This document shows, piece by piece, positions 4,361 through 19,699 of a stretch of 34,520 bases of DNA. The stretch comes from Myxococcota bacterium (GTDB taxonomy: Bacteria > Myxococcota > XYA12-FULL-58-9 > JALHOP01). A program made the translations under genes and the position numbers. The number at the start of each line of letters is the position of its first letter. Position 1 is the stretch's first letter. The stretch spans positions 1 through 34,520 of the forward strand of contig JBGGMJ010000148.1 of assembly GCA_041288095.1 (NCBI GenBank), read 5' to 3'. The notes below the pieces were generated by a model. It saw nothing but the letters and a program-made list of their open reading frames with translations. It was not told the DNA's origin and made no database searches.

Positions 4361-5253
4361 GCAGGATGCCGCGCGGCCCAATGTCGCGCGATGTCCACGC
4401 GCCGGCAGATCCAGACCCGATCGTGCGCCTCGAGATGATCGAGGAAGCGCTGCAGTGCGCGAAAGCGGGCAGGGCGGCCGACGATGCGGCAGTGCAAGCC
4501 GATCGAGAGCATCTTGGGGGCTTCGTCCCCCTCGGCGTAGAGCACGTCGAACGCATCACGTAGGTAGGCGAAGAACTGGTCGCCCGAGTTGAAGCCCTGC
4601 GCCGTGGCGAAGCGCATGTCGTTGGTGTCGAGGGTGTACGGCACGACGAGGTGCTGCTTGCCGCTGACGGTGGTCCAATAGGGAAGGTCGTCGGCGTACG
4701 AGTCCGAGTCGTAGAGAAACCCGCCGTGCTCGACGACGAGCTTGCGCGTCTGGGGACTATCGCGGCCGGTGTACCAGCCGAGCGGGGCCTCGCCGGTGAT
4801 CCGTTTTAGCGTAGCGACGGCCTCCTGCAGGTGTTGGCGCTCGGTCGCTTCGTCCATGTTCTGGTAGCTGATCCAGCGCAGGCCGTGGCTCGCGATCTCG
4901 TGCTTCGCTTCGACGAACGCGCGCACCACGTCGGGGTGGCGCTCCATCGCCATGGCGACCCCGAAGACGGTGAGCGGGAGCTTGCGCGTCTCGAACTCGC
5001 GCAAGATGCGCCAAACACCGGCGCGGCTGCCGTATTCGTACATGCTCTCCATGCTCATGTGGCGCATGGGGAAGGCCTGGGCGCCGATGATCTCGGAGAG
5101 GAAGGTTTCGGAGGCCGGGTCACCGTGCAGGACGTTGTTCTCGCCGCCCTCTTCGTAGTTGAGGACGAATTGGACCGCGACACGCGCCCGCCCGGGCCAG
5201 TCAGCGTACGGGGGGCGGCGGCCGTAGCCTTCGAGATCGCGCGGGTACGTCAT
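4357..5253 (-). CDS. puuE: Allantoinase PuuE (polysaccharide-deacetylase fold)
   Basis: [68 protein letters not shown]. Confidence 0.97.
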
Positions 5254-5258
5254 CACTC

Positions 5259-5293
5259 TCTTCTATTGCAAACACCACCCGCCTCACGCAAAT
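5259..5293 (-). promoter_or_regulatory. Purine-operon upstream element, copy 2, in the divergent puuE/uraH intergenic region
   Basis: TCTTCTAT-tg-CAAACA-N11-ACGCAAAT on the + strand, matching 3851-3885. Confidence 0.7.
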
Positions 5294-5306
5294 ACCCCAA
5301 GCTACG

Positions 5307-5657
5307 ATGGGACGCCTGACCACACACGTCTTGGATACCGCTCACGGCAGGCCGGGCGCCGGCATCGAGGTCGAGCTGTACGCCGTCGAAGGTGGACGCC
5401 GTCTGCTCAAGAAGACACGCACCAACGCCGACGGCCGTTGCGACGCGCCGCTCCTCGAGGGTGACGAGATGGGCGTGGGACGCTACGAGCTCGTCTTCCA
5501 CGCCGGCAACTACTTCGCCGCGCAAGGTGTGCAGGTGCCCGAGCCGCGCTTCGTCGACAAAGTCACGCTGGCGTTCGGTATCGCGGACCCATCCGGCCAC
5601 TACCATGTACCGCTGCTCGTTTCGCCCTGGAGTTACACCACGTACCGCGGGAGCTGA
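5307..5657 (+). CDS. uraH: 5-hydroxyisourate hydrolase (transthyretin-like)
   Basis: [38 protein letters not shown] (terminal YRGS signature). Confidence 0.97.
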
Positions 5658-5660
5658 GAC

Positions 5661-6929
5661 ATGGGTGCCTACCTCCTCGACTGGGCAGCGATGCTCACCC
5701 GCTGGCTGCACTTCATCGCCGGCGTGGCCTGGATCGGCGCCTCCTTCTACTTCATCTGGCTCGACAACAGCTTGAAGGCACCGACCGATCCCGACCTGCA
5801 GAAGAAGGGCGTGTCGGGTGAGCTCTGGGCCGTCCACGGTGGCGGCTTCTACAATCCGCAAAAGTACATGGTGGCGCCGGCGACGCTGCCGGCCGACCTG
5901 CACTGGTTCAAGTGGGAGGCCTACACCACGTGGATCAGCGGCTTCCTGCTGCTCACCTGGGTCTACTACTTCAACGCCAGCGCTTACCTCGTCGATCAGA
6001 ATGTGCTCGCCATGTCGCCCGGCACCGCTATCGGCATCTCACTGGGCGTGCTGGCCTTCGGCTGGGTCATCTACGACGTCATGTGCCGCGTGTTCGGTAA
6101 AGCGGACAAGGCGCTCGCCATTTTCGGCTTCGTCCTGCTCATCGTCGCGGCGTGGGGGCTAGCGAAAGTCTTCAACGCGCGCGCCGCCTATCTGCACGTC
6201 GGCGCGATGATCGGCACCATGATGGCGGCGAACGTCCTCATGGTGATCATCCCCGGCCAGCGCCGCGTGGTCGAAGCCATGAAGCGCGGCGAGAAGCCCA
6301 ATCCCGAGGACGGCCGCCGCGCCAAGCAGCGCTCGGTGCACAACAACTACCTGACGCTACCGGTGCTCTTCATCATGGTGAGCAACCACTTCCCCATGAC
6401 CTACCAGCACCCGCGCGCCTGGTTGGTGCTCGCGGTCATCATGGTGGCGGCGGTGATGATCCGGCACTTCTTCAATCTGCGGCACAAGGGCAAGGTGGTC
6501 ATCGCGCTGCCGCTCACCGCCGCGGGGTTGTTCCTCGCGCTCATCATCGCCATGGCTCCGAGTCAGGACGCCGAAGCGGACGTGGGTCCGCCGCCGACCC
6601 TCGAAGAGGTGCACTCGGTGATTGGCCTGCGTTGCGCGCGTTGCCACGCCAAGAAGCCGAGCTTCCCCGGACTCCTCGTTGCTCCTCAAGGTCTCATCTT
6701 CGAGGACGCCGCCGTCATCGAGGCAAACCACGAGCGCATCTACAAGCAGGTGGTCGAGACCGAGGCGATGCCCCAGGGCAACATCACCAAGATGACCGAG
6801 GACGAGCGCAACCTCATCGGCCGCTGGTGCCGTTACATGAAGAACCGTAAGCCGGGCGAGGCTGTCCCACCGCCGCCGACGGATGCGCCGCCCGCTCCGG
6901 GAGAACAGCCCCAGCCAGCGGGCGACTAG
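5661..6929 (+). CDS. puuD: Membrane urate hydroxylase PuuD with C-terminal cytochrome c
   Basis: RWLH.IAG.AWIGASFYF, WAVHGGGFY, LHWFKWEAY.TW.SG, RSVHNNYLTLPVLFIMVSNH, heme motif CARCH, MPQGN.T.MT..ER. Confidence 0.95.
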   Translation: MGAYLLDWAAMLTRWLHFIAGVAWIGASFYFIWLDNSLKAPTDPDLQKKGVSGELWAVHGGGFYNPQKYMVAPATLPADLHWFKWEAYTTWISGFLLLTWVYYFNASAYLVDQNVLAMSPGTAIGISLGVLAFGWVIYDVMCRVFGKADKALAIFGFVLLIVAAWGLAKVFNARAAYLHVGAMIGTMMAANVLMVIIPGQRRVVEAMKRGEKPNPEDGRRAKQRSVHNNYLTLPVLFIMVSNHFPMTYQHPRAWLVLAVIMVAAVMIRHFFNLRHKGKVVIALPLTAAGLFLALIIAMAPSQDAEADVGPPPTLEEVHSVIGLRCARCHAKKPSFPGLLVAPQGLIFEDAAVIEANHERIYKQVVETEAMPQGNITKMTEDERNLIGRWCRYMKNRKPGEAVPPPPTDAPPAPGEQPQPAGD

Positions 6930-7528
6930 CGCAACGAGACGCCGCCGCCGCCGGGCTTCAGGCCGTCGCCACGGAGCGGCGCTTGCGGGGCGATGCCGCG
7001 GGCGGCCTCGCGACCTGGCTCCTCGCCAGTCACGTCGGTGGCACGGAGGCTCGCGGGGGGCGTGAAAGTCACCCAGCGCGGCATCTGGCTCGTGAGGTTG
7101 GCCGCTGCCTCGCCGGGTTGCATCGGACGGCTGCCCGAGTCGAAGACGCGACCGTTCTGATTCTCCACCAAGTACGCATGCTCCGAGCGCAGCAGCTCAC
7201 CTTGCGGTGAGACGATGTGGCGCCAGATGTCGACGTAGTAGCGCCCGTCGTCGCGGAGCTGCCAATCTTCGGCGATGATCTGAGTGTTGCCGCCGTGGAA
7301 CTGGCCGGCGGTATCGACGAAGCCGAACTGTCCGGCGAAGTAACGCTGATGGGTGCCGTCACGTGACCCCTCGGTCTGCTCGATCCCCTTGTAGGTTCCG
7401 AACTGGCCGTAGTCGGCCAAGGTGCCGTGGCTTGCGATGTTGGCGAGCGCGGTTTCCCAGCCGGCCGGCGCGACGGCCGGAGCTTCGTTGCGGGGCAGGG
7501 GGCTCACTGCGGAAATGGGGCTGGCCAT
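6926..7528 (-). CDS. Hypothetical protein with beta-rich core
   Basis: AAGGAG RBS; Ala/Pro/Ser N-terminus; stop overlaps the puuD stop (CTAG). Confidence 0.75.
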   Translation of the reverse strand: MASPISAVSPLPRNEAPAVAPAGWETALANIASHGTLADYGQFGTYKGIEQTEGSRDGTHQRYFAGQFGFVDTAGQFHGGNTQIIAEDWQLRDDGRYYVDIWRHIVSPQGELLRSEHAYLVENQNGRVFDSGSRPMQPGEAAANLTSQMPRWVTFTPPASLRATDVTGEEPGREAARGIAPQAPLRGDGLKPGGGGVSLR

Positions 7529-12171: not shown

Positions 12172-14127
12172 CTACGCTTTCGCCGCGTCGAGCGCGCCAC
12201 GGATCTTCTCGTAGGGATACTCACGCACCGCGGCAAGCTCGGCGTCGGCGTCGACGACGGTGAAGAGCTTGGTGAGCGGCTCGATCGCGTCCGCCACGAC
12301 GGGCTTGTGCTCCACCCGCCTCACCATGATCTCCGCTGCCTTGAGGCGTACCCCCGGGCTTTCGGCGTCGAGGAGGCGTGCGAGGGTCGCGAGGTGCATC
12401 CGGTCGCCGAAAGCGCGCGCGACCTCGTAGACGTCGGAGGATTCGCAGGTCGTCGTAGTGAGCAGGTGATCGAGACTCTCCTGGGCGATCTCCGCGGCGG
12501 GGTGGTTCAAGGTCTCCCTGATGCGCATGCGGCACCAGAGGTCGGTGCCGGGGTCGGCGAGCAGGCCGCTGAGCGCGCTCATGACTGGTTCGGTGGACAG
12601 CGCGCCCTCGGCGCCTTGGATCGCGAGGATCGCGTGGCGGCGGAACTGAGTACCGCGGATGCCCTCGAGCACCAGCGCCTCGTGCTCCGCGCCGCTCAAC
12701 AGCTTCAGGAGCGCGTCGTACGCGAGGCTGGCCGAGCGCCCATCGCCGCCACTGATCTGCTCGCGCATGAGTGGAATGACTTGCTCGCGGGCCCGGGCCG
12801 TCATGCCGTGGGCTGCCGCGTCTTTCAGCGGCTCGATGAGGGGCTGGGCCGAGCCGCCGTCGCGCGCGATGCGCACCAGCTCGAGGATGGCCGGTGCCGG
12901 CGGCGGGCCGACCCGATTCATGATGCGCCACCAGAAATCGCCGTCGCGCTTCGCCAGCACGGCCGGCAGGTGAGTCCACGCCGCCGGTCCCATGCCATTG
13001 ATGATGTCCGCTAGAGCGTTCTTGTCGCTCACGAGATCCAGGAAGGCCGCGTCGCCCATGGCCGCCATGACGCGCACCGCCGCTCCGTCGTGGTCGTGCT
13101 CCCGGTCGGCGACGTAGCTTTCTTTGATGACGTCCACGGCGTTGGGCATGCTCACGAGTCGATCACCGCCGATAGTGGCGAGGGCTTCCATGATCGCGGC
13201 TCGGTCCTTGGATGCGTCCTTGCCCGCGATGCCGCGACGCTGTTCAAGTGCCCGCCAAAGCGGATCGACCGCGCCGGTCGCGAGCCGCCCGACCTTGCTC
13301 AAGCCGCGGCAAGCGGCCCGAAGATCTCCAGAGCTCTCGAGCTGCTTCACCCACGCCGGAACAGCGGCGGCGCCGAACGCTTCGACAGTGTGCGCGATTT
13401 CCCAGGGGCTGGCCGCGCTCTTCTCGAGCCGCAGGACGTCGGCCAAGAGCTCCGGGTTGTGCGGGGCTTGGGCCCGGATTGCGTCGAGGCCTTCGCCGGG
13501 ATCCCGCGCGAGCAGGTCGCGCAAGGCGGCTGCGTCGCCAGGTTGCGTTTCCAGGGCGGCGACCTTGGTGGCTCCTTGCAAAGCGGCGGTGTCGTCGTCG
13601 AGCAGGGCGGCCACGGTCGCGATCTGAATGGCGAGCGGCTCGCGGCAGCAAATGTCACCAAACGCGGCTTCGTCGGCGGCGCAGACGAGCTGTACGGCCT
13701 TGCCCAGGCTCATGGTTCGGCCGCTGTAATCTTGGAGGCGGTAGACGATCCGGTCGATGCTGCTCCGCGAGCCGATCTCCGCCACGAGGCCGGAGAGCCG
13801 CGCCAGCATCACGTGAGGTTGCGCGATCCTCACCGTAGTGGCGAGCACGCTCTCGATAGTGTCCTCAAGACCGAAGCCGGCGAGCTGCGACGGATGCACG
13901 CCCATCGCGCCGGCGCGGCCACCGTTCGCGGCGAGACCCAAGCGCTCGGTGCCGGGCTTTGGGGCGCCGATGGCGGCGTTGCCGGGCTCGCGGAGAGGCG
14001 TTGGACCAGGTGGTGGTGGGGCGGTGAGGGCCGCTGGTACGGCAATATGAGCGGTTGCTCCCGGGATCGTGCGTGGTGCGTTCGTCATATCCGCTCTCTG
14101 CCGCATGGAACCGCCATTAGCGGTCAT
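12172..14127 (-). CDS. Large hypothetical alpha-solenoid (HEAT-like) protein with Pro-rich N-terminus
   Basis: HEAT-like units such as L..LL.AESPGVRLKAAEIM and AIMEALATIG. Start at ATG 14127 or 14088. Confidence 0.7.
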   Translation of the reverse strand: MTANGGSMRQRADMTNAPRTIPGATAHIAVPAALTAPPPPGPTPLREPGNAAIGAPKPGTERLGLAANGGRAGAMGVHPSQLAGFGLEDTIESVLATTVRIAQPHVMLARLSGLVAEIGSRSSIDRIVYRLQDYSGRTMSLGKAVQLVCAADEAAFGDICCREPLAIQIATVAALLDDDTAALQGATKVAALETQPGDAAALRDLLARDPGEGLDAIRAQAPHNPELLADVLRLEKSAASPWEIAHTVEAFGAAAVPAWVKQLESSGDLRAACRGLSKVGRLATGAVDPLWRALEQRRGIAGKDASKDRAAIMEALATIGGDRLVSMPNAVDVIKESYVADREHDHDGAAVRVMAAMGDAAFLDLVSDKNALADIINGMGPAAWTHLPAVLAKRDGDFWWRIMNRVGPPPAPAILELVRIARDGGSAQPLIEPLKDAAAHGMTARAREQVIPLMREQISGGDGRSASLAYDALLKLLSGAEHEALVLEGIRGTQFRRHAILAIQGAEGALSTEPVMSALSGLLADPGTDLWCRMRIRETLNHPAAEIAQESLDHLLTTTTCESSDVYEVARAFGDRMHLATLARLLDAESPGVRLKAAEIMVRRVEHKPVVADAIEPLTKLFTVVDADAELAAVREYPYEKIRGALDAAKA

Positions 14128-14138
14128 CGTGTTCACCA

Positions 14139-14146
14139 GTATCGGC
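14139..14146 (-). promoter_or_regulatory. sigma28-like -10 box GCCGATAC
   Basis: 11 nt before ATG 14127; -35 box poor. Confidence 0.55.
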
Positions 14147-14217
14147 GACGGCGGACGAGCGGGCACAGCCCGTCCGGTGACGACGCGGCACTCCACGGGT
14201 GATCGACGAAAAAGGCG

Positions 14218-15211: not shown

Positions 15212-16513
15212 CTAGCCGCCAAAGGCGACGTTGCAGCCAACGATGACTTTCTGGGCCCAGACGGTGTAGTCGCCGCGCGCCGAGGGCAGCGCGAATCCCG
15301 AAAGCGTGTCGGCGCGGGGATTGAAGATCGATGACTCGACGTGGACCGGGATACCGAGCACGGCACCGTAGGTAGCTTCGAGCGTGATGCTCTCGGTCAG
15401 CGGGATGCGCGCGCCGAGGTTGAGCTCCATGAGCGTGAAATCGATGTTCAAGGGACTCACGGCCTCGCGTGGGGTGTTGCGCGGCGTGACGTCGAAGCGT
15501 GAAGCTAGCTCCAGGCCCGAGTCGAGCTTGTAGCTGCCCCGCAGGCCGACCGTGTACTCGTTGCGCGACTCACGTACGGAGACCTGGTCGCCACGAAGCA
15601 GGGCGCTGTCGGAGGTGACGACACGGCCGAGGATGAGGCGCTGCCGGCTCTTCCCCTGCATCTGTGCGAGGAGCGCGAAGGTCATGCGGCCAGTGGTCAG
15701 CTCCGCTTCAGCGTTCAGCGCCCACGGAATGGGATAGGTCAGCCGAAAATCGGCGGTTGGATTCGCGATCTGCACCGGCACCGCGTCGGCGAGAGAGGGC
15801 GGCGCGGTGAGCGCGAGGCGGCCACCGAGTCGCGGCGTTTGCGGCAAGAAGCCGCTCAACGCGATGGCGAAGTTGTCCGCCGGTTTGGCGTAGACGCTCG
15901 CGAGCACCAGGGTCGACCATCCATGGAGGTCGAGCTCGAGGCTGCCTTCGAGCTCGGGATCCTCGAACGGGAAGAGCTGCGCGCCGGAGGGCAAGGCGCG
16001 ATTGGCATAGGCACCGAAGTCGTAGGATGCCTGCTGGTCGAGCGACACGAACATCGGCCCGCCACCGATAGCGACCGCGACGCGCGGGCTCACCGTCCAG
16101 ATCGCGCCCAGCGGCGCCGCGTAGGCGAACGCCGTGCTGTCGGTGACGTGGTAGCGTGTCGGACCGTCAGTCCGCCATCGCGTACCAGCGGTCGTGGGGC
16201 TGAAGACGCCCGCGAAAACGCGCAGCTCCGGCCACGGCGTGCTCGCCACCGCGGTCAATGCTCCTACGGGCGAGATGATGCCGAAGGTCTCGCGCGGGTA
16301 GAGTGGCTCGGTGCTCGCGTCCTCGGGCTCGCGCTGGTAGCCGACGTGGATGTAGCTGGCGCGCGCCTCGATGTAGACGGCGTGCGGCGCTTTCGACATG
16401 CCGAGGACCGCGGGGCCCCAGTAGACCGTCGAGCCGTTCGCCTGGGTCGGACCCGCGAAGACCCCACCGGCGGGAGATGCGACGAGGAGCGCCGCCAGTG
16501 CCGTGACTAGCAC
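15212..16513 (-). CDS. OmpP1/FadL/TodX-family outer-membrane beta-barrel
   Basis: Signal peptide, hatch-like STVYWGPA.L, W..DGPTRY, alternating beta-strands, C-terminal strand VIVGCNVAF. GTG start overlaps the upstream stop by 7 nt. Confidence 0.8.
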   Translation of the reverse strand: MLVTALAALLVASPAGGVFAGPTQANGSTVYWGPAVLGMSKAPHAVYIEARASYIHVGYQREPEDASTEPLYPRETFGIISPVGALTAVASTPWPELRVFAGVFSPTTAGTRWRTDGPTRYHVTDSTAFAYAAPLGAIWTVSPRVAVAIGGGPMFVSLDQQASYDFGAYANRALPSGAQLFPFEDPELEGSLELDLHGWSTLVLASVYAKPADNFAIALSGFLPQTPRLGGRLALTAPPSLADAVPVQIANPTADFRLTYPIPWALNAEAELTTGRMTFALLAQMQGKSRQRLILGRVVTSDSALLRGDQVSVRESRNEYTVGLRGSYKLDSGLELASRFDVTPRNTPREAVSPLNIDFTLMELNLGARIPLTESITLEATYGAVLGIPVHVESSIFNPRADTLSGFALPSARGDYTVWAQKVIVGCNVAFGG

Positions 16514-18618
16514 GTCGGCCTTTTGCGCTTACGGAGCAGCATGCCCGCGATGGCGAGCATCGCGAACAATGAAGCTTCTCCCGCGGCGGCGCAGCCCATG
16601 CCAGGGTCGTCGACGACTGCATAGCTTTGCGTGAAGGTCGCGACATTACCGGCTTGATCGGTGGCGGTGAGCCGCACGCGGACCGTCGAGAGGTCAGGCA
16701 GGCCATCGAGCTTCAAGACGTCGGTCGACTTGAGCCGGCCGCTCGCGAGCTGGTGGTCATCCTTGGCGCGGCGGCCAACTGCTTCGACGACATAGTCGAT
16801 GGTGATGTCCTCCGGCTTGCTCATGTTGTCGTCGGCGTCGATGCGCAGCGGTGTGCCGCCCGCGGGGATGATGCCGCGCGGGCCGTCGCGCACGACGACG
16901 ACCGGTGGGGTCGTGTCGATATCGAGAGTGATGACCTCGGGTGACGCGTCGATGTTGCCGGAGAGGTCTTGCGCGTAGATTTTCACCTCGTGCCGGCCGC
17001 CGGTGAGTCCGCTCAAGCTGATGCTGTTGCCGACATGCACGTCCGTTTGCGCAACCCCGTCGATGTCGATGAGATGATGGATGAAGCCTGCTGGTGTCTT
17101 GTCGTCGTCGGAGTCGGCGGTGAGCTCGACCTCGGCACCGCAGGGGCAATGCGGCTCTTCGGCGAGCGCGGTGCGCGGCGGGCTACCGTCAGGACCGGCG
17201 CTGAAGAGCGAGAACGAGGCGACGATCCCGGCCGCGCTCGTGCGGACCTCGTCGATGGCTATCGCGAGTGGCGTCGAGGTGAAGACGTTCGCGGTGACCG
17301 GGACCTCACGCAGCGAGCTCAAGAAGCGCGGCATGATCGCGGCTTCCACGAACCCCGCCATGGTCGACCGCGAGAGATTGAGATCGGCACGGCCGATCTG
17401 GACGGAGAGCGCGTCCATTCCCAGGCTCTTCGGCGCGACCACGATGCGCCGTTTGCTATCGCGCACGGCTACGTCCGCGCCAACGAACACGCCGGTGTCG
17501 AACGTCGCCGAGTACTGCTCGTTCGACGGCATGCGGATCGCGACCTCGCCGTGCAAGTCCTCGACCTGCAGGGCCACGCCCCCGCCGTCGTCCCCGGTGA
17601 CGAAGCGCGGCGGGTGCTTGGCGACCACGAGAGCGTCGATGCGCGAGCCAGGGAGCGTGCCGTCGAGGATGTCGCCGATGCCGACGTCGGTGGTGCGCGT
17701 ATCGAAGCACAGCCAGCCGGCCTCCCATGCCGAGTCCATGACGCGCTGGACGAAATGATCGCTGACCCCGATTGCGGTCTGGCCTTGGGGCAGAGCGATT
17801 GGGGCTCCGGTCGGTCTCGGCCGCGGCTCGAGGGTGCTCGCATCCACGCAGGTGCTGCGCGTGGCCGGCTGAACGTCGAGGTCGAAGTCGAGGAGCAAGG
17901 CGTCCTCGGCGACGGTGATGAGGCGGGGCTGTGCCTTGAATTGCAGGCGCGCCGCGGACACCTCGCGGTCGACGAGGCCGGTGGTGGCGTCGGCGATGCG
18001 CTTGTTGAGGAGCTCCGGCAGTCCCGCCACGAGATCGGTGCGGACATAGTCGACGAGCGCATCGCGAACCGAGTCGTGCACCGCCGAGAGGATGGAGCCG
18101 TACAGCCCGCACGTCGCGAGATCGAGCGTGACGGCTTGGTTCTCCATCGAGAGCACGACCGAGTCGACGACGATCTCCGGCACGCAATCGTCGACGCCGA
18201 TCGACGCGCGGGCGCTCACCTCGAAATGGTCGATGTCGAGCGCGACGTTGCAAGCGGTGTTGGGGAGAGCGCAGACGGTGAGCTCGAGGAACGCGGAGAC
18301 GTTCACCGAGCCGGCGACGCGCAGGGCGATGGCACCCGCCTGCAGATCGACTTCGACCTGGTCGAGCGAGGCGCGTACCTCGGCGCCGCTCGCGTGGATC
18401 GCCACGTCGTCGAACCAACCGCCGCACTCGAACACGGTGCGATCGATCTCGGGCAGGGCGACAGTGTCGGGGAGGATGGTGTCCGCCGCGCGCAAGGCGG
18501 TGTCGATGGATTCCTGGGTGATCTGGGCCCGGACCGCCGACGGAGCATAGCTCGCCTCACAGGTGGCGAGCGCCAACCGTGGAAGCAGAATGACCAAGCT
18601 CAAGACCAACGGACGCAT
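16507..18618 (-). CDS. Secreted surface protein: putative BPI/LBP/CETP-like region, Ig-like beta domains and MYXO-CTERM-like tail
   Basis: Signal peptide. AQITQESID…LPEID and AIGVSDHFVQ…AWEAGWL resemble BPI N- and C-lobe starts. DLSGN/DTTPP/DQAGN are Ig-like motifs. Tail GCAAAG-hydrophobic-RKRKR. Confidence 0.7.
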   Translation of the reverse strand: MRPLVLSLVILLPRLALATCEASYAPSAVRAQITQESIDTALRAADTILPDTVALPEIDRTVFECGGWFDDVAIHASGAEVRASLDQVEVDLQAGAIALRVAGSVNVSAFLELTVCALPNTACNVALDIDHFEVSARASIGVDDCVPEIVVDSVVLSMENQAVTLDLATCGLYGSILSAVHDSVRDALVDYVRTDLVAGLPELLNKRIADATTGLVDREVSAARLQFKAQPRLITVAEDALLLDFDLDVQPATRSTCVDASTLEPRPRPTGAPIALPQGQTAIGVSDHFVQRVMDSAWEAGWLCFDTRTTDVGIGDILDGTLPGSRIDALVVAKHPPRFVTGDDGGGVALQVEDLHGEVAIRMPSNEQYSATFDTGVFVGADVAVRDSKRRIVVAPKSLGMDALSVQIGRADLNLSRSTMAGFVEAAIMPRFLSSLREVPVTANVFTSTPLAIAIDEVRTSAAGIVASFSLFSAGPDGSPPRTALAEEPHCPCGAEVELTADSDDDKTPAGFIHHLIDIDGVAQTDVHVGNSISLSGLTGGRHEVKIYAQDLSGNIDASPEVITLDIDTTPPVVVVRDGPRGIIPAGGTPLRIDADDNMSKPEDITIDYVVEAVGRRAKDDHQLASGRLKSTDVLKLDGLPDLSTVRVRLTATDQAGNVATFTQSYAVVDDPGMGCAAAGEASLFAMLAIAGMLLRKRKRPTC

Positions 18619-18642
18619 AGGCAAGATTGTCCCTGAACGGGC

Positions 18643-18670
18643 TTATCGACCGTTCGGACCCATTTGATGT
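18643..18670 (-). promoter_or_regulatory. sigma28-like promoter ACATC-N15-GTCGATAA
   Basis: 24 nt upstream of ATG 18618. Confidence 0.55.
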
Positions 18671-18736: not shown

Positions 18737-19699
18737 TCAGCGCATGTCTTTGAGGATGCTGCCCAGTAGCTCGTGGCTCGATTTCAGGACGCGGAGGGCT
18801 TCCCGCATCGCGGCTTGCCATTCGTCGTCGCTGAGCCGGCCCTTCAGGAGATCGGCGATGCAACGACCGGCGAGCGAGACCGATTGAGCGAGCTCCTCGA
18901 CGTCGCCGACGGTAAGCAGGGGCGGCGGCGGCGGGGTGCCTTTTTCGCGCTCGACCGCCTCGCGCTCCGCCCGTTCAGCGCGTTCCGCCCGCTCCTCGAG
19001 CTCGCGCTCGCGTAACGCTTGCTCTTTCGCGGTCTCTTGCTCGCGGCGTGTGTGCTCCTGCAGCGCCGCGCGCTCGCGGCGGGCGTGCTCCTCGACGGCT
19101 TCGCGTTCGCGTCTCGCGGCTTCGTCGCGCGCCATGGCCTCGCGCTTGGCGGCTTCCTGGCGGGCCTCGGCCTCGCGGCGATCCGCGTCATCGCGAGCCT
19201 GTTGCTCGCGCAACGCCGCTTCTTGCAGCGCCTCCTGCTCGCGGCGCATCTGCTCGCGCAGCGCCTCTTGCACGCGGTTGTGATAGGCCTCGACCTCCTG
19301 CTTCTTGGTTTGCAGGAAGGCGTTTAGCTTCTTGACGCTCGCCTCGGCTGCATCGCGCAGCTCTTTTTCGCGCTGGGCTTCCTGGCGCGCTTCGTCGAGC
19401 TCGGTTTCCTTGGCTGCCCAGACCTCGCGAATGCTCTGCATGCGCTCTTCGAGGGCGCGGACCTTCTTGCGCAGGATGGCGATCTTCTCTTCGCCGCTGG
19501 TGCGGCCGAGCTGGTCTTCCCCTTCGACGCGGATGGGGTCGAACAGCTTGTTCGGGGGCACGTCCTTCTTTTGAGGCTTTGGGCGCGGTGGTGGCGGCGC
19601 TGCGTCCGCTCGCGCGGACGCAGCCGATGCCTGCTGAACCTCGTTCAGCAAGTCCAGGACGCCCTCGAGCTCCTGGGTGGCTGTCCGGTCACGCGCCAT
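18737..19699 (-). CDS. Cytoplasmic coiled-coil protein with 11-aa tandem repeats
   Basis: E/R/A/Q-rich helix between two Pro-rich linkers. TACATT -10-like box 6 nt before ATG suggests a leaderless transcript. Confidence 0.8.
   Translation of the reverse strand: MARDRTATQELEGVLDLLNEVQQASAASARADAAPPPPRPKPQKKDVPPNKLFDPIRVEGEDQLGRTSGEEKIAILRKKVRALEERMQSIREVWAAKETELDEARQEAQREKELRDAAEASVKKLNAFLQTKKQEVEAYHNRVQEALREQMRREQEALQEAALREQQARDDADRREAEARQEAAKREAMARDEAARREREAVEEHARRERAALQEHTRREQETAKEQALRERELEERAERAERAEREAVEREKGTPPPPPLLTVGDVEELAQSVSLAGRCIADLLKGRLSDDEWQAAMREALRVLKSSHELLGSILKDMR

Follow-up and report, generated by a model that had tools for sequence, protein, structure and literature searches.

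A predicted surface-anchored BPI/CETP-like double TULIP protein encoded with a divergent FadL-type barrel in a Myxococcota bacterium

Results

The gene pair

The window analyzed here is the whole of a 34,520-nucleotide (nt) stretch of DNA from a Myxococcota bacterium of the JALHOP01 lineage (assembly GCA_041288095.1, contig JBGGMJ010000148.1, positions 1-34,520), with a G+C content of 65-69%. It includes two overlapping genes, both on the minus strand. The first codes for a predicted secreted and surface-anchored protein that resembles the lipid-binding proteins BPI and CETP (protein 1), and the second for a divergent outer-membrane barrel of the FadL/TodX family (protein 2). Table 1 shows the coordinates of both genes and of the features discussed below. 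The open reading frame (ORF) of protein 1 (16507-18624) opens with a TTG codon that would produce 705 amino acids (aa); the ATG found two codons on, at 18618, produces the 703-aa protein, which is identical to the database protein P0003. An earlier note on this DNA, made from the nucleotide sequence without database searches, described a 703-aa gene that overlaps a barrel gene by 7 nt. The ORFs located at 16507-18618 and 15212-16513 confirmed this arrangement, and the overlap spans 16507-16513. When both proteins were compared with Pfam and NCBIfam, neither one scored above a curated cut-off.

Table 1. Location of the two genes, their predicted domains and the associated elements
Feature	Position	Strand	Description
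Protein-1 gene	16507-18618	minus	703 aa from ATG at 18618; stop at 16507-16509; predicted secreted, surface-anchored BPI/CETP-like protein
Signal peptide	18562-18618	minus	Residues ~1-19, A-L-A cleavage motif; read from the sequence, cleavage site inferred
Double TULIP (BPI/LBP/CETP-like)	17188-18546	minus	Residues 25-477; profile, Foldseek, VIA-align
Two Ig/FN3-like beta-sandwiches	16603-17187	minus	Residues 478-570 and 571-672; secondary structure of the model, VIA-align
MYXO-CTERM-like sorting tail	16510-16602	minus	Residues 673-703: Gly-Cys676, hydrophobic helix, RKRKR
Protein-2 gene	15212-16513	minus	433 aa, GTG start; divergent FadL/TodX-family outer-membrane barrel
Promoter-like element	18636-18669	minus	Sigma28-type -10-like GTCGATAA inside inverted repeat AACGG-N9-CCGTT
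FliA/WhiG-like sigma factor	G000:C127:21744-22571	plus	L023:745-1572
FliA/WhiG-like sigma factor	G000:C92:35188-36072	minus	L024:689-1573

Protein 1 has the fold of a BPI/LBP/CETP-type double TULIP

A word-indexed protein search with protein 1 returned two close relatives only, and its Pfam and NCBIfam matches were limited to weak, sub-threshold Ig-like domains (Big_3_3 and Big_13) and to parts of MYXO-CTERM-anchored families. When HMMER was run exhaustively with residues 1-490, it recovered 89 cluster representatives at E ≤ 1e-3, with 49 clusters at ≤ 1e-10 and 25 at ≤ 1e-30. Most members of the family are 700-740 aa long and share a common layout. An alignment of 74 of them (A1) was the basis of the profile and of the AlphaFold2 model described below. 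The alignment includes one invariant Trp as well as near-invariant cysteines. The conserved cysteines of the TULIP region are residues 65, 116, 123, 145, 170, 257 and 304, among which the pairs 123/170 and 257/304 are near-invariant in the family.

Comparison of the A1 profile with all PDB sequences identified human BPI (E 8e-8), with a match between profile positions 32-447 and chain residues 3-422 that covers both lobes, followed by LBP (E 0.003). Two short strings that had been quoted in the earlier note as reminiscent of BPI are present in the translation, and HMMER placed them at BPI residues 3-20, the start of the N-lobe, and ~255-280, in the C-lobe. A feature search of the ESM Atlas listed clusters bearing PF02886 with scores of 0.93 and 0.91. 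When 65 of the 74 family members were scanned, none reached the Pfam cut-offs for PF01273 or PF02886, and protein 1 itself produced no hit. Sub-threshold matches to the TULIP clan were found in five of the 65 (PF02886 in three, PF01273 in one and JHBP in one).

The AlphaFold2 model of protein 1 has a mean predicted local distance difference test (pLDDT) score of 89.1 and a predicted template modeling (pTM) score of 0.80. The model consists of a leader, an alpha/beta region (residues 25-477), beta-sandwiches (478-672) and a C-terminal helix (684-697), and the leader is hydrophobic and helical with a low pLDDT. The architecture that had been read from the sequence, namely a signal peptide, an alpha/beta region of about 450 aa and two Ig-like domains, can be seen in it. 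The order of the secondary-structure elements fits two tandem TULIP lobes joined by a central sheet. In a Foldseek search of the PDB, the first ranks were occupied by BPI (E 8.5e-20), LBP (9.8e-18) and CETP (5.6e-15), and other TULIPs came next; the template modeling (TM) score with CETP, normalized by the length of the target, was 0.67. Structural alignment with VIA-align gave the highest Z score to CETP (17.0 over 420 residues, model residues 26-477), followed by BPI (16.3 over 416 residues) and LBP (14.8), with 394-420 residues aligned. The single TULIPs juvenile-hormone-binding protein, Takeout and Der p 7 aligned with the N-lobe only, with Z scores of about 10. The region of about residues 25-475, for which such a comparison had been proposed, is then predicted to be two-lobed, tubular and BPI/CETP-like. 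The profile match and the predicted structure indicate that residues 25-477 of protein 1 are a BPI/LBP/CETP-type double TULIP. Residues 478-672 aligned with complement MG and FN3 domains (Z 9-10.5), and the two Ig-like domains probably are a stalk.

The double TULIP is strongly acidic. The whole domain has a net charge of -29 and an isoelectric point (pI) of 4.4, the N-lobe alone has a net charge of -22 and a pI of 4.1, and the median net charge in the family is -31. Only 5 of the 456 residues are lysines. BPI binds lipopolysaccharide (LPS) through the tip of its cationic N-lobe, and so acidic a TULIP is closer to what would be expected of a general lipid carrier than of a BPI-type LPS binder. 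BPI also has a single conserved disulfide in the N-lobe, and the HMMER alignment shows the BPI cysteines out of register with those conserved in the family. The possibility that protein 1 is an N-terminal lipoprotein modified at Cys20 was considered and rejected: the residue that precedes the cysteine is Thr, and Cys20 is found in only 42% of the members. This residue looks more like a disulfide partner.

Other ORFs in the order, about 1,030-1,100 aa long, resemble the profile in its TULIP part alone (E 1e-14 to 1e-23). Examples are G009:C14:5518-6456, G008:C197:62550-63560 and G010:C15:43981-44904. Some of them come from families of the order in which the 700-aa family is missing, and judging by these profile matches they are probably a second, distant family of double TULIPs.

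Protein 1 has the elements of a surface-sorting signal

The last residues of protein 1 form the tripartite tail that the earlier note had described as a MYXO-CTERM-like anchor. The Cys676 of this tail is shared by 92% of the 74 family members. The MYXO-CTERM tag is described as a cell-surface sorting signal in a 2025 study of myxosortase (PMC11980579). The host genome codes for a myxosortase-family protease (G000:C99:8642-9406) that scored 118.5 bits with the Mrt_core model NF040914 (cut-off 100), while the scores with the specific MrtP, MrtX and MrtC models were below their cut-offs. A loose pattern of the tail identified 22 ORFs in the host genome, and about 17 of them have what by eye look like genuine MYXO-CTERM tails. 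The tail and the protease make surface display of protein 1 plausible.

Protein 2 is a divergent member of the FadL/TodX family

A profile search with 13 protein-2 relatives identified two relatives at about 30% identity, P0103 and P0104, that carry PF03349; canonical FadLs scored weaker. In an extended alignment of 18 sequences, three of which were added canonical FadLs, 10 match PF03349 at E ≤ 1. Against the PDB, the profile matched the P. aeruginosa FadL homologue 3dwo (E 7e-4) and E. coli FadL (E 0.19). An hhalign comparison with an annotated OmpP1/FadL transporter resulted in a probability of 97.8% (E 9.8e-13 over 403 columns). The AlphaFold2 model of protein 2 (pLDDT 83.5, pTM 0.81) was similar to 3dwo (Foldseek E 1.1e-22, TM 0.76) and to E. 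coli FadL (TM 0.73), in both cases over the full length, and all of the best 24 matches listed are FadL, TodX, TbuX or CymD (TM 0.60-0.76). These profile comparisons and the predicted structure indicate that protein 2 belongs to the FadL/TodX family as a divergent barrel. The "FadL-like" label that the downstream gene had received from the sequence alone was then appropriate despite the lack of a Pfam match. A PF03349 search of the host genome found two ordinary FadL genes elsewhere but did not pick up protein 2 or its paralogue.

The hatch of FadL is typified by the NPA motif, and the PDB titles of FadL structures name N33A, P34A and delta-NPA mutants. The consensus W-N-P-A of the protein-2 family was aligned by hhalign to N-P-G-A of a canonical FadL.

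The two genes are linked in the order and fused in some lineages

Linkage of the two genes was searched in 22 genomes of the order to which the host belongs and in 39 further genomes of the phylum, and a locus was considered to carry full-length protein 1 at E ≤ 1e-140 to the profile. The evidence of linkage comes from the 22 genomes of the order and two fused database proteins. There are 22 loci with full-length protein 1, distributed in 11 genomes and five families of the order, and two additional protein-1 fragments at contig ends in G015. The conservation of the pair, which the earlier note had proposed as a check, was found at 14 of the 22 full-length loci, always with the barrel gene downstream and on the same strand. 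The distance is no more than about 100 nt at 13 of these 14 loci and 2.2 kb at the other one, in G019. Seen from the other side, 14 of 15 protein-2 genes adjoin a protein-1 gene, the remaining one being a split gene on G004:C52. Metagenome contigs searched with a narrower alignment added one locus, with an 89%-identical relative. At the G019 locus (G019:C351, L016), a 658-aa ORF with no Pfam match (5195-7171, plus strand) lies between protein 1 and the barrel.

The host genome has four paralogues of protein 1. Two of them, the one in this locus and the one on C79, are paired with a barrel, and those on C134 and C160 are unpaired. The two paired paralogues share 35% identity in protein 1 and 46% in protein 2 (33-35% and 43-46%, respectively, over the paralogue pairs). 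Identities this low imply that the pairing is older than the split of the two paralogues.

The start of the second gene overlaps the end of the first one at the five loci found in the genus (four genomes, both paralogue pairs), and the stop codon of protein 1 is located about 38 nt before the conserved sequence Gly-Gly-x-Phe-x-Gly-Pro-Thr of protein 2. The protein-2 leaders of the genus have 12-20 residues and no basic N-region, while those of other lineages are ordinary signal peptides. Proteins 1 and 2 are encoded in a single open frame of 1138-1169 aa in G005 (C140, L006), P0024 and P0058. In these fused frames, the tail's arginine cluster is followed immediately by a hydrophobic leader that bears an Ala-x-Ala site. 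The overlap at the junction and the fusions, as read from the sequences, argue for strict co-production of both proteins. The topology would also be compatible with a polyprotein cleaved at two sites.

A conserved promoter-like element precedes the pair

The 34-nt element located upstream of the pair does not differ among three species of the genus, whereas its flanks diverge. The complete 34-nt pattern occurs at one site in the host genome. It includes the sequence GTCGATAA, which resembles the -10 element recognized by sigma28. The -10-like part GTCGATAA was present upstream of 13 of the 14 family loci examined, with the CGATAA hexamer 14-67 nt before the start codon. The sigma28-like box of the earlier note is, then, real as a conserved element. 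Inspection by eye showed that about 10 of the 13 boxed loci fit G[AC]AA-N15-NNCGATAA. An inverted repeat, AACGG-N9-CCGTT (18640-18658, minus strand), is also conserved in the three species and encloses the -10-like box; it may act as an operator or form a 5' hairpin.

A search of the host genome with [GT][AC]AA-N15-NNCGATAA found 78 sites versus one for the reversed control, while the bare hexamers were about equally common (848 versus 734). Most of the motif sites have the form GCAAC-N16-CGATAA, and at 74 of the 78 an ORF of at least 80 aa, mostly of unknown function, starts within 120 nt. The other three protein-1 paralogues of the host have the canonical motif (G000:C79:37228-37254, C134:37079-37105 and C160:25933-25959). 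The copy in the window has a variant -35 and is absent from the 78. The genome codes for two sigma factors whose best family match is FliA/WhiG, with scores of 166 and 164 bits that are below the cut-off of 189.6. A flagellar role for the box was considered and discarded, since no flagellin was found in the host genome, which is 90% complete. Judging by the distribution of the motif, the box seems to belong to a large regulon that is not flagellar and is controlled by an alternative sigma factor.

Neighboring genes

None of the neighbors on the same strand hints at a function for the pair. The genes located upstream of the pair on that strand are a 320-aa ORF, a TerC gene and a gene for a protein with a beta-lactamase fold. 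The 320-aa ORF (18737-19699, minus strand) is directly upstream and its product is rich in Glu, Arg and Ala and coiled-coil-like. Downstream, also on the same strand, are genes for a HAD-like protein, whose true start is probably beyond a non-coding gap, a 674-aa ORF (12172-14196, minus strand) with no Pfam match, and malic enzyme.

Discussion

The mechanism that we propose builds on the two folds, the superfamily-level membership of both proteins, the order of the genes and the presence of sorting machinery in the host. To these we add, as inferences, the surface location, lipid binding, contact between protein 1 and protein 2, direction of transport and cargo. We hypothesize, with a probability of roughly 0.55, that the pair is a translationally coupled operon that encodes a two-part device for the capture and uptake of hydrophobic molecules. 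Protein 1 would be exported through its signal peptide and stabilized by disulfides, and it would most likely be brought to the surface and lipid-anchored via its MYXO-CTERM tail by the host myxosortase. The two Ig-like domains would hold out the acidic double-TULIP tube of about 450 residues, and prey, vesicles or the environment would be the source of the lipid-like molecules collected in the hydrophobic interior of the tube. The cargo, for which fatty acids or some other compact or single-chain lipid are the most plausible candidates, could then enter protein 2, whose FadL-type barrel contains a hatch, and be passed to the outer membrane and the periplasm, as happens in FadL channels.

Several observations weigh against this mechanism. 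The sorting tail of protein 1 scored 16.6 bits with the MYXO-CTERM model TIGR03901, which is under the cut-off of 20, and protein 2 matched no Pfam or NCBIfam family. The leader of protein 2 (16450-16513, minus strand) is very short and has no basic N-region. None of the neighbors of the pair is suggestive of lipid metabolism. The distribution is also narrow. Of the 22 genomes of one order, only 11 have the pair, and the search of 39 genomes outside that order did not recover it; these had no full-length protein 1, and their best hits were on the Ig-like part only. Within the order, the protein-2 query found no barrel on the contig at 8 of the 22 full-length loci, and a profile search found none within 5 kb of C134, C160 or G004:C29. 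The TULIP protein can consequently function without a dedicated barrel.

These unpaired loci are also what would be expected under the main alternative, in which protein 2 is a dock rather than a channel. In that case, a barrel of the PorV/BamG type would hold or position protein 1 through its extracellular loops, and protein 1 alone would bind prey membranes and extract lipid from them or permeabilize them, an activity known for BPI and proposed for TipA of Bdellovibrio. FadL homologues are not always channels: one study describes non-transporting members, BamG and PorV, that grip surface proteins by their loops (PMC12578637). Bacteroidota BamG chains are at ranks 25, 26 and 29 among the Foldseek matches listed for protein 2. 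The N-terminal hatch of protein 2 is shorter than that of FadL and its NPA-type motif is altered, with G-P-A in the host protein, where Gly replaces the consensus Asn. In addition, TipA, a BPI-like protein of Bdellovibrio, binds and destabilizes membranes without a channel partner (bioRxiv 10.1101/2025.09.09.675085). However, the best matches of protein 2 are the transporting FadL, TodX and CymD, with E values of 1e-22 to 1e-14 versus 4e-10 for BamG. Moreover, a protein dock is not needed because the MYXO-CTERM tail would already anchor protein 1. We consider a docking role unlikely.

Traffic could also go outward. In this scenario, the cell itself would make the hydrophobic cargo, be it a lipid, a pigment, a signal or a secondary metabolite, and the barrel would release it from the outer membrane to the surface TULIP, for display or for transfer to neighboring cells or vesicles. 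Double TULIPs such as CETP move lipids both ways, and the promoter-like motif is common to many genes of unknown function. The study that describes BamG and PorV also states that a lateral opening of FadL joins the lumen of the barrel to the outer membrane (PMC12578637). Against export, no biosynthetic genes adjoin the pair. We know of no exporter in the FadL family, and we regard this direction of transport as quite improbable.

The earlier note had proposed the extraction of lipid or LPS. The lipid option is retained in the capture-and-uptake mechanism, while the LPS option, in which protein 1 takes LPS from the outer membrane of prey and hands it to the barrel, is disfavored. The nearest solved structure by sequence is indeed BPI, followed by LBP, but the best structural match is CETP, and the acidic charge and scarcity of lysines described above mean that the cationic LPS-binding tip of BPI is absent. 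FadL channels are known for handling single small hydrophobic molecules rather than whole LPS. An LPS binder is, therefore, very unlikely. Equally hard to sustain is the idea that the two genes are mere neighbors with no common function. They keep the same order and strand at 14 loci in five families of the order, and the association holds in two ancient paralogue pairs, with start-stop overlaps and in-frame fusions.

The capture-and-uptake mechanism can be extended, although more tentatively. The lipid-anchored, stalk-mounted double TULIP might dock on its own FadL-type channel and pass lipid straight into it, which would make the pair a novel outer-membrane machine for acquiring lipids. In some lineages, both might be made as a polyprotein that is cut twice, with the MYXO-CTERM helix, the arginine cluster and the leader of the barrel forming a membrane hairpin. 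Expression might depend on a FliA/WhiG-like sigma factor that seems to control a regulon of at least 70 genes. This fuller version is possible but doubtful.

How Gram-negative bacteria, and predators especially, bring bulky external lipids to FadL is poorly understood, and FadL is thought to catch free fatty acids by itself. If the mechanism proposed here is correct, the TULIP-FadL pair would fill in the missing "collector" step. Bacteria would then have a counterpart of the eukaryotic chains of lipid hand-off, and the unloading of a TULIP into a membrane protein could be studied in a compact system of only two proteins. Two results are of interest apart from the mechanism. An unannotated family was defined, with about 89 clusters at 50% identity, none of them caught by Pfam, and the organism, in which no flagellin was found, seems to have a large sigma28-like regulon.

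The view that BPI/LBP/CETP proteins are mainly eukaryotic, expressed in the earlier note, needs to be revised. A preprint reports the solved structure of a BPI-like double TULIP from a bacterium, TipA of Bdellovibrio, which holds lipids, binds bilayers and has a beta-sandwich partner, and a Foldseek survey in the same preprint found TULIP fusions to beta-rich domains in other bacteria (bioRxiv 10.1101/2025.09.09.675085). No TipA chain was among the PDB matches listed for protein 1. Bacterial BPI-like double TULIPs are already known, then, and what is new is the surface anchor and the dedicated FadL partner. We found no description of such a protein paired with a FadL-family barrel in the literature searched, which did not include subscription journals.

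Comparison with known systems

Human BPI, LBP and CETP (PF01273 and PF02886; PDB 1bp1/1ewf, 4m4d and 2obd) share with protein 1 the same two-lobed fold over about 450 residues, as well as homology at the level of sequence profiles. Protein 1 differs in being bacterial, in being strongly acidic instead of cationic, in its larger and different set of conserved cysteines, and in the addition of two Ig-like domains and a C-terminal sorting tail. Protein 2, in turn, has the same predicted barrel-with-hatch fold as E. coli FadL, the P. aeruginosa FadL homologue and TodX/TbuX/CymD (PF03349). It is, however, beyond the reach of the Pfam model, and its hatch is shorter and has Gly for Asn.

Regarding the organization as a pair, the traA and traB genes of Myxococcus xanthus form an operon and are similar in that they, too, encode a MYXO-CTERM surface protein together with a partner in the outer membrane. 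Nonetheless, TraA is a recognition receptor and not a TULIP, and TraB is not a FadL-type barrel. TipA and TipB (bd2538/bd2539), as described in the preprint, resemble the pair studied here in the two-gene operon, the predator-type organism and the functionally attached beta-sandwich. The difference is that the TipA/TipB system has a homodimerizing hairpin and TipB is a separate small beta-sandwich adaptor that opens the N-lobe, whereas here the partner is a FadL-type barrel, the sandwiches are fused C-terminally and the anchor is of the MYXO-CTERM type.

The other parallel is VolA of Vibrio cholerae. It is described as a surface lipoprotein whose gene is cotranscribed with that of a FadL homologue, and it is proposed to supply that channel (vca0863/vca0862; PMC3656444). 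Both systems would then have a surface-anchored, lipid-handling partner of a FadL homologue. VolA, however, is a lipoprotein with lysophospholipase activity whose gene lies downstream of fadL, whereas protein 1 is a lipid-binding tube, predicted to be non-enzymatic, that is encoded upstream of the barrel and carries a C-terminal tag. By analogy, these two precedents, TipA and VolA, support the logic of capture followed by uptake.

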